650 nucleotides of DNA from Escherichia coli (GTDB lineage: Bacteria; Pseudomonadota; Gammaproteobacteria; Enterobacterales; Enterobacteriaceae): NCBI RefSeq assembly GCF_003334335.1, contig NZ_QOWQ01000163.1; one strand, 5' to 3'. Each line of letters begins with the position of its first letter. The stretch's first letter is position 1. Below the pieces are notes generated by a model. It was given only the letters and a program-made list of their open reading frames with translations, had not been told where the DNA came from and searched no databases. The position numbers and the translations under genes are program-made. Below, piece by piece: positions 315 to 513 of the stretch.

Positions 315-337
315 CGTAACCTGTCGGATCGCCGGAA

Positions 338-344
338 AGGACCC
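338..344 (-). other. cosQ-like element (minus-strand GGGTCCT), about 24 bp from the cosN nick on the right-arm side
   Basis: Plus strand 338-344 is AGGACCC, the reverse complement of GGGTCCT. This matches the sequence and position I recall for lambda cosQ, which is required for termination of packaging. The assignment is by sequence and position only. Confidence 0.7.
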
Positions 345-349
345 GCAAA

Positions 350-366
350 ATGATAATAATTATCAT
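350..366. repeat. 17-bp perfect palindrome ATGATAAT-A-ATTATCAT (8-bp arms around one central base), Fur-box-like; function unassigned
   Basis: Read directly: 350-357 ATGATAAT, 358 A, 359-366 ATTATCAT, which is the exact reverse complement of the left arm. On the other strand it reads GATGATAATTATTATCAT, close to the Fur consensus GATAATGATAATCATTATC. The palindrome is certain; any function is not. Confidence 0.6.
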
Positions 367-513
367 CTACATGTCACAACGTGCATCTACGCCATCAAAC
401 CACGTCAAATAATCAATTATGACGCAGGTATCGTATTAATTGATCTGCATCAACTTAACGTAAAAACAACTTCAGACAATACAAATCAGCGACACTGAAT
501 ACGGGGCAACCTC

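Follow-up and report, generated by a model that had tools for sequence, protein, structure and literature searches.

The window analysed in this study is the whole stretch of 650 nucleotides of Escherichia coli DNA. It carries the 5' end of a homologue of Nu1, a cosB region, a cosN cohesive end and a cosQ heptamer, followed by a palindrome with a Fur-box match, non-coding DNA and the first codons of ylcI (Table 1). Alignment to the lambda reference (NC_001416) placed the window on the reverse complement of the lambda cos junction, with window position 314 at lambda bp 1, 315 at 48502, 1 at 315 and 650 at 48167. We hold with good confidence that the window is the cos junction of a lambda-type defective E. 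coli prophage, read on the lambda bottom strand; this confidence applies jointly to the whole explanation given below.

Table 1. Features of the window, with positions counted from its first letter.
Feature	Position	Strand	Remarks
Nu1 homologue (nohD), 5' end, terminase small subunit	1-125	-	start codon 125-123; first 41 full codons
cosB: R1, inverted R2, IHF site I1 between R2 and R3, R3	148-264		lambda 51-168 except at two positions
R1 of cosB	~148-165		boundaries approximate
R2 of cosB (inverted)	~191-210		boundaries approximate
R3 of cosB	~251-264		boundaries approximate
cosN, 12-nt cohesive end	303-314		exact reverse complement of GGGCGGCGACCT; same as lambda 1-12
Divergent patch	331-390		nine substitutions relative to lambda; two main alleles, one block
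cosQ heptamer AGGACCC (GGGTCCT on lambda top strand)	338-344		same as lambda 48473-48479
Palindrome with perfect 7-1-7 Fur box TGATAATAATTATCA at 351-365	350-366		consensus match and published coordinates
Sigma-70-like promoter match (prediction)	350-377	-	GTGACA, 16-nt spacer, TATCAT; 10/12
CATCTAC direct repeat	364-370 and 384-390		second copy only in window allele
Non-coding stretch upstream of ylcI	391-513		100% lambda; inverted repeat 412-424/432-444
ylcI start, first 45 codons (DUF3950, YlcI/YnfO family)	514-650	+	100% lambda

The boundaries of the R sites and the exact coordinates of cosQ are those that we take to be used in the literature of the Feiss laboratory, and they are approximate. 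In a repeat scan of the window, R1 and R2 appeared as an inverted repeat and R1 and R3 as a direct repeat. Window 1-125 showed no difference from lambda 191-315, and the N-terminus of Nu1 is the same in both. In the identical chromosomal loci, this gene is annotated as nohD or as a DNA-packaging protein, with an ORF of 181 aa. cosQ is a strongly conserved 7-bp site, and the layout of the window follows the published layout of cos (PMC4669245). The segment 332-344, which includes cosQ, was unchanged across 99 related sequences, apart from one gap. We found the cohesive end, cosQ on the right-arm side of cosN, and a complex cosB followed by the gene for the terminase small subunit (TerS). At the level of sequence, the window thus has the features of a lambda-type cos site as well as those of a Fur box. 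It resembles lambda cos in architecture, order and spacing, and is identical to it in the cohesive end, cosQ, R3, R1, the 41 Nu1 codons and positions 391-650, whereas nine bases are substituted in 331-390, another is substituted in the R2 core, and the interval from R2 to R1 is shorter by one base. An Rfam search of the window at a permissive threshold gave three sub-threshold chance matches over the R1/R2 inverted repeat and no RNA family.

To the right of the palindrome, 147 bp of non-coding DNA lead to the ylcI start. About 70 bp upstream of this start lies an imperfect 13-nt inverted repeat (412-424 and 432-444, 85% complementary, 7-nt loop), which could be an operator or an RNA hairpin. 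Lambda encodes at complement(48109..48303) an intact 64-aa protein of the YlcI/YnfO family that is identical to that of the prophage. Despite this ylcI homologue, NC_001416 annotates nothing between 47944 and 48502. The pattern of YlcI (NIRFP, helix, GSGNFS, helix) looks like that of a ribbon-helix-helix DNA-binding protein, which we offer as a guess. No sequence relative of YlcI was found in the PDB, and its single-sequence AlphaFold model was of low confidence (pLDDT 60).

Several minor elements were also observed. Within the coding region of ylcI, the minus strand of the window (the lambda top strand) has a weak terminator-like hairpin at 534-554, with 7 pairs and a T-rich tail. Lambda, DLP12 and Qin share this hairpin, and chance alone would give about 0.7 such matches. 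An ORF of 85 codons on the plus strand (241-498) crosses cosN, cosQ and the Fur box, and this ORF and a neighbouring one appear as hypothetical proteins in several phage records, for example that of Turner. The 85-codon ORF is probably an annotation artefact, because it runs across the point at which virion DNA is cut. In one IMG/VR locus (L173; IMGVR_UViG_2724679293_000033, reverse strand, ~6960-7900), the segment from the cosQ side through ylcI appears as a 475-bp tandem duplication, in which two copies of the window-type 23-mer lie 475 bp apart. As the junction contains N, the duplication is probably an assembly artefact.

Since the window lies so close to lambda, we determined each difference from NC_001416. 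A sequence-only reading of the window had described 1-314 as an almost exact copy of the lambda left end, with one substitution in R2 and possibly a 1-bp length difference near 176-180. The alignment showed exactly these two changes. Window 197, in the third position of the R2 core (CGTTTCC), is C where lambda 118 is T. In addition, one base is deleted after window 176, where lambda has an extra G at 138/139. The same reading had counted several differences in 315-420, around the palindrome and the repeat region, with cosQ unchanged. We found nine, at 331, 346, 350, 358, 373, 385, 387, 388 and 390, and cosN was untouched as well as cosQ. Both the palindrome, with perfect 8-nt arms (350-357 and 359-366), and the two copies of CATCTAC are real. 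The patch substitutions are the reason why the arms of the lambda palindrome are 7 nt rather than 8 nt long and why lambda lacks the second CATCTAC; this two-copy 7-mer may well be a chance repeat.

Identity to lambda is therefore uneven along the window, as nine of the 11 differences fall inside 331-390. None of 200,000 random placements reproduced this clustering in one 60-bp stretch, and a Fisher test (9/60 vs 2/590) gave 1.3e-8. These results demonstrate that the clustering is beyond chance. The divergent interval had been proposed to be 315-513; the differences are indeed there, at 331-390, but 391-513, and the sequence on to 650, is 100% lambda.

We then examined where this sequence is found. 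We found the window with 100% identity in at least 18 complete E. coli chromosomes, and lambda/DE3 records are 98.5% identical to it, which agrees with the earlier suggestion of a natural lambda relative in a prophage rather than laboratory lambda. Three of the identical loci were examined (FORC_081, BR1220 and E423), and all three contain the same defective lambdoid prophage between bioA/ybhB and ybhC, an interval that we take to be the lambda attachment site. The prophage has genes for a lambda-like integrase and excisionase, Q, lysis genes, bor, ybcV, ybcW, ylcI and nohD. Three different deletions in the three loci have taken out the head and tail genes. These findings suggest that an inherited prophage is still decaying, independently from one locus to the next, and has so far kept cos, ylcI, bor and the lysis genes. 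The three identical loci are a defective (cryptic) lambdoid prophage of E. coli. Lambda cos differs in this respect, in that the window-identical loci are chromosomal and lie in a prophage without head and tail genes. The defective prophage cannot package itself, and its retained cos looks intact apart from the R2 change. In the window-identical loci L003, L128 and L129, the deletion end points lie in nohD or gene A, and the truncated gene is fused to tail-fibre remnants or to other DNA such as an AraC-family gene; the defective prophage in these loci was found in unrelated E. coli isolates.

E. coli K-12 has a related arrangement in DLP12, where the gene order of nohD, cos, ylcI, ybcW, ybcV, bor and the Rz/R/S homologues is the same. 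The nohD(nohB)-ylcI region of DLP12 also shares the patch allele of the window, its promoter-like match and the core of its Fur box. It differs at nine scattered positions in 650 bp, has T in R2 and A at position 345, and lies at ~0.56-0.59 Mb, whereas the window-identical loci lie between bioA/ybhB and ybhC.

The two differences on the left side of cos have opposite polarity. In an alignment of 113 junctions (among the matches listed), the extra base at lambda 138/139 was present only in the lambda reference and in none of the 112 other sequences compared. The 1-bp length difference is thus an oddity of the lambda reference, and only the R2 change is an oddity of the window's lineage. The private extra G of lambda extends a small GAGGC/GCCTC hairpin between R2 and R1. 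The R2 change at window 197 converts the core CGTTTCC to CGCTTCC at the position that corresponds to R3 bp 55, and the adjacent R3 bp 56 is listed as important for recognition by TerS (PMC4669245). The C allele is rare and was found in seven IMG/VR loci among the matches listed. Its carriers are deleted prophages and, in addition, one locus (L068) with 8.5 kb of contiguous lambda-like head genes. An association of the C allele with defective prophages was considered and was not clean, as L068 shows. The R2 change is therefore not simply a decay mutation.

To place the patch in the lambdoid population, cos junctions were collected from IMG/VR by an exact-pattern scan for a cosN sequence lying outside the patch, and lambda, K-12 DLP12 and K-12 Qin were added, giving 113 junctions. 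Among these junctions, which are those among the matches listed, the nine sites formed two main haplotypes, the window type GCAAGACTC in 68 (including K-12 DLP12) and the lambda type ATGGAGGGG in 12 (including lambda and K-12 Qin), with few intermediates, among them GCAAGGGTC and GCAAAGGTC. When junctions were pooled to 193, again among the matches listed, position 331 was A in all 45 lambda-type sequences and G in 118 of the 119 that were window-type. Because position 331 is near-completely linked with 346-390, the block is inherited as a unit across cosQ. Both alleles were found in four of the five left-arm (cosB/Nu1) clusters with several members among the pooled junctions, which indicates re-assortment through the invariant cosN-cosQ interval.

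The relative frequency of the alleles was also determined in other collections. A 151-nt query against 5,426 complete E. coli genomes reached an identity of at least 99% in 2,177 records with the window allele and in 933 with the lambda allele, counts that are inflated by laboratory K-12 and B strains carrying both alleles (DLP12 and Qin). Allele-specific 23-mers were found in at least 120 IMG/VR contigs for the window allele vs 47 for the lambda allele. A deeper, outgroup-like lineage, whose right arm is ~10% diverged, agreed with the window allele at seven of the nine sites, which makes the lambda allele the more derived. Among isolated phages, both alleles are represented. Turner and PhiR11_1, the best phage records, are 99.7% identical to the window, whereas lambda has the other allele. 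Turner differs from the window at 197 (T) and 615 only, and PhiR11_1 likewise at 197 and one other position. A link between the patch allele and prophage decay was rejected, since each allele is found in isolated phages as well as in cryptic prophages. These results demonstrate that the patch is a discrete two-allele polymorphism, in which the window allele is the commoner, and the lambda allele the rarer and more derived one.

We next considered how the patch may have arisen. The difference between the window and lambda is one closed 60-bp patch (331-390) rather than a module boundary. The lambda allele is the rarer one, with about seven derived changes, and the window allele the commoner and less derived. 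Homologous recombination re-assorts the patch as a unit against different cosB/Nu1 arms via the invariant cosN-cosQ interval. We infer that recombination, not local mutation, made the patch, and this is the origin that we prefer. The patch would then have been imported from another lineage, but no donor with a lambda-type patch in generally diverged flanks was found among the 47 lambda-type IMG/VR loci, each of which differs at 0-4 positions over the 279 bp on its right. A single-event origin of 385-390, by a small inversion or a templated copy, was considered and rejected, as the reverse complement is not an exact lambda match and an intermediate CGTGTAC haplotype exists.

Alternatively, the patch may have arisen in place, without recombination or selection, through point mutations in the spacer that separates cosQ from the upstream region of ylcI and that would be under weak constraint. 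The existence of intermediate haplotypes is compatible with such stepwise local change, as is the failure to find a divergent donor among the 47 lambda-type loci. The variable sites also spare cosQ and the arms of the Fur box, a pattern that change restricted to unconstrained bases would produce. However, the neighbouring 123 bp of non-coding DNA (391-513) have no differences, compared with nine in the 60 bp of the patch (Fisher 2.8e-5), and the nine sites are near-completely linked in two common haplotypes, which is unexpected under neutral drift with so much recombination. Taken as a whole, we regard this origin as unlikely, and recombination remains the preferred explanation.

The ferric uptake regulator Fur recognizes a 7-1-7 consensus, TGATAATnATTATCA, which is also given in a 19-bp form, GATAATGATAATCATTATC. 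The 7-1-7 element at 351-365 is a perfect match that did not occur in 200 shuffles of the sequence, and the window matches the 19-bp consensus at 16 of 19 positions. The lambda counterpart (48452-48466) is the sole 7-1-7 match in that entire genome, against an expected number of 0.02. The Fur box is 37-51 bp from the right cohesive end, and its arms (353-357 and 359-368) were invariant in 99 sequences, with variation only at the centre and flanks.

Fur sites have been reported at both K-12 homologues of this junction. Qin has a homologous cos junction at nohA-ynfO, and its nohA site, with 22.3 bits, was confirmed by gel shift (Chen et al. 2007, PMC2189734), after it had been selected in vivo (Vassinova and Kozyrev 2000, per PMC2189734). 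The nohB (now nohD) site of DLP12, with 25.3 bits, is the third strongest among the predicted clusters in Table 4 of the same paper (PMC2189734). When the published nohA coordinate was converted by its shift from the gene coordinates, it fell on the centre of the palindrome, window 358, which is 233 bp upstream of the start codon of the Nu1 homologue. With the differences between the two genome versions taken into account, the nohB coordinate presumably falls on the same centre. Since the nohA and nohB coordinates hit its centre, the palindrome is the documented Fur site. K-12 thus has one copy of each patch allele, the window type at nohB/DLP12 and the lambda type at nohA/Qin, and the published Fur data span both; the core of the nohB site (351-365) is the same as that of the window. 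By analogy with the homologous nohA site, where binding has been demonstrated, the palindrome of the window is probably a Fur-binding site.

The palindrome was also followed through other phages. In phi80 and the Stx1a phages, cosQ and the palindrome are kept and are followed by complete divergence, with a Fur box that is perfect in phi80 and has one mismatch in the Stx1a phages. Other lineages diverge directly after cosQ and have no palindrome. These results indicate that in many lambdoid phages, though not in every one, the palindrome goes along with the cos module. In the open-access literature, we found no paper tying Fur to Nu1 or terminase and iron, no discussion of a role of the Fur site in lambda packaging or in late or prophage gene expression, and nothing relevant on ylcI, ynfO or nohD together with Fur. 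The main text of a Fur regulon paper (PMC4676285) does not name nohD, ylcI or ynfO.

cosN, cosQ and the two Fur-box arms are preserved in both patch alleles, which are for this reason probably near-equivalent in function for packaging and Fur binding. The alleles differ at the centre and flanks of the Fur box and at the hexamers of a predicted promoter. A consensus scan of the minus strand gave this promoter-like match, which shares bases with the Fur box and is directed across cosQ, cosN and cosB toward nohD. It is found in the window and DLP12 and is absent from lambda and from Qin, which has the lambda-type patch allele. In the lambda allele, both hexamers are altered, the -10 at its final base (350) and the -35 at one position (373). 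Since chance would supply about 0.8 such matches per region, a difference in promoter function between the alleles is proposed with low confidence.

It may be that the dimorphism is regulatory and is kept by selection, with the window allele acting as a Fur-repressed sigma-70 promoter into nohD/Nu1 and the lambda allele as a promoter-down form with a slightly weaker Fur site. The 10/12 match over the Fur box in window-type sequences only, and the position of the differences at 350 and 373 in the two hexamers, would fit this reading. The information content of the two Fur sites (25.3 vs 22.3 bits) and the persistence of both alleles at appreciable frequency in many backgrounds are also in its favour. 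On the other hand, the predicted promoter is a consensus match of a kind that chance alone supplies at 0.8 per region, and phi80, as we read its sequence, keeps the Fur box without an equivalent -35 hexamer. In addition, the nohA site, which is of the lambda type, was also selected with a sigma-70 model (Chen et al. 2007, PMC2189734), and five of the nine differences (331, 346 and 385-390) lie outside both the hexamers and the Fur box. We give this reading a small probability. A broader form of it, in which the cosQ-adjacent Fur box is a functional, conserved part of the cos module, the dimorphism is a promoter-up/down pair and lambda has lost the promoter, would be a long shot. If it were true, iron shortage would lead to transcription across cos into the gene for the terminase small subunit in any prophage with the common allele, including defective ones.

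A further question was whether cos is a mosaic breakpoint, at which a right arm from another lambdoid lineage joins the cosB/Nu1 side. Breakpoints near cos do occur in other phages. Right arms are unrelated directly after cosQ in several groups (L007, L022 and L097), divergence begins directly past the palindrome in the Stx1a phages and phi80, and left arms change type from about window 275 leftwards. Population-wide, alternative left and right arms of lambdoid phages meet at a conserved cosN-cosQ(-palindrome) block. The window compared with lambda, in contrast, shows a short internal allele difference and no junction. From 391 to the end of the window, a length of 260 bp, the two sequences are again 100% identical; in the lambda comparison there is therefore no mosaic break at cos. 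In the identical locus FORC_081, identity then continues at ~99.7% for another ~2.2 kb to the right.

The earlier proposal of mosaic divergence beginning at cos, with a possible breakpoint at or near cosN, did not hold for this reason, as there is no sustained change of identity at that point. In FORC_081, the background divergence from lambda is ~0.28% over ~3.2 kb, from 600 bp left of the window to 2.2 kb to its right, and is 15% inside the patch. The nearest sustained rise, to ~4% and mostly at third codon positions, starts in gene A, ~600 bp left of the window. The right-arm side had also been judged the more diverged. This is true inside the window, with nine differences vs two, but not in the identical locus as a whole, where identity to lambda is 97.7% for the left arm (lambda 1-1759) as against 99.3% for the right (lambda 45966-48502). 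We consider a mosaic breakpoint at cos highly improbable for the window. Sequencing or assembly errors, or mutations of laboratory lambda, have next to no probability as the source of the differences: the 1-bp insertion at lambda 138/139 is indeed found in the lambda reference alone in our sample, but for the patch such a reading is refuted by the exact recurrence of both alleles in hundreds to thousands of independent genomes, and at least 18 complete chromosomes match the whole window.

The window is a known element in a natural variant that carries the majority allele, and its loci are already sequenced and annotated in many genomes. Its significance is mainly one of correct annotation, as a natural lambda-type cos whose defective E. 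coli prophage is widespread. In the 60-bp segment next to cosQ, the allele of laboratory lambda is the more derived one and is in the minority. The lambda reference near cos is not the population consensus, and it has a private 1-bp insertion and an unannotated ylcI homologue. Of wider interest is a strong, documented Fur site that adjoins cosQ and is conserved across lambdoid phages with unrelated neighbouring DNA.
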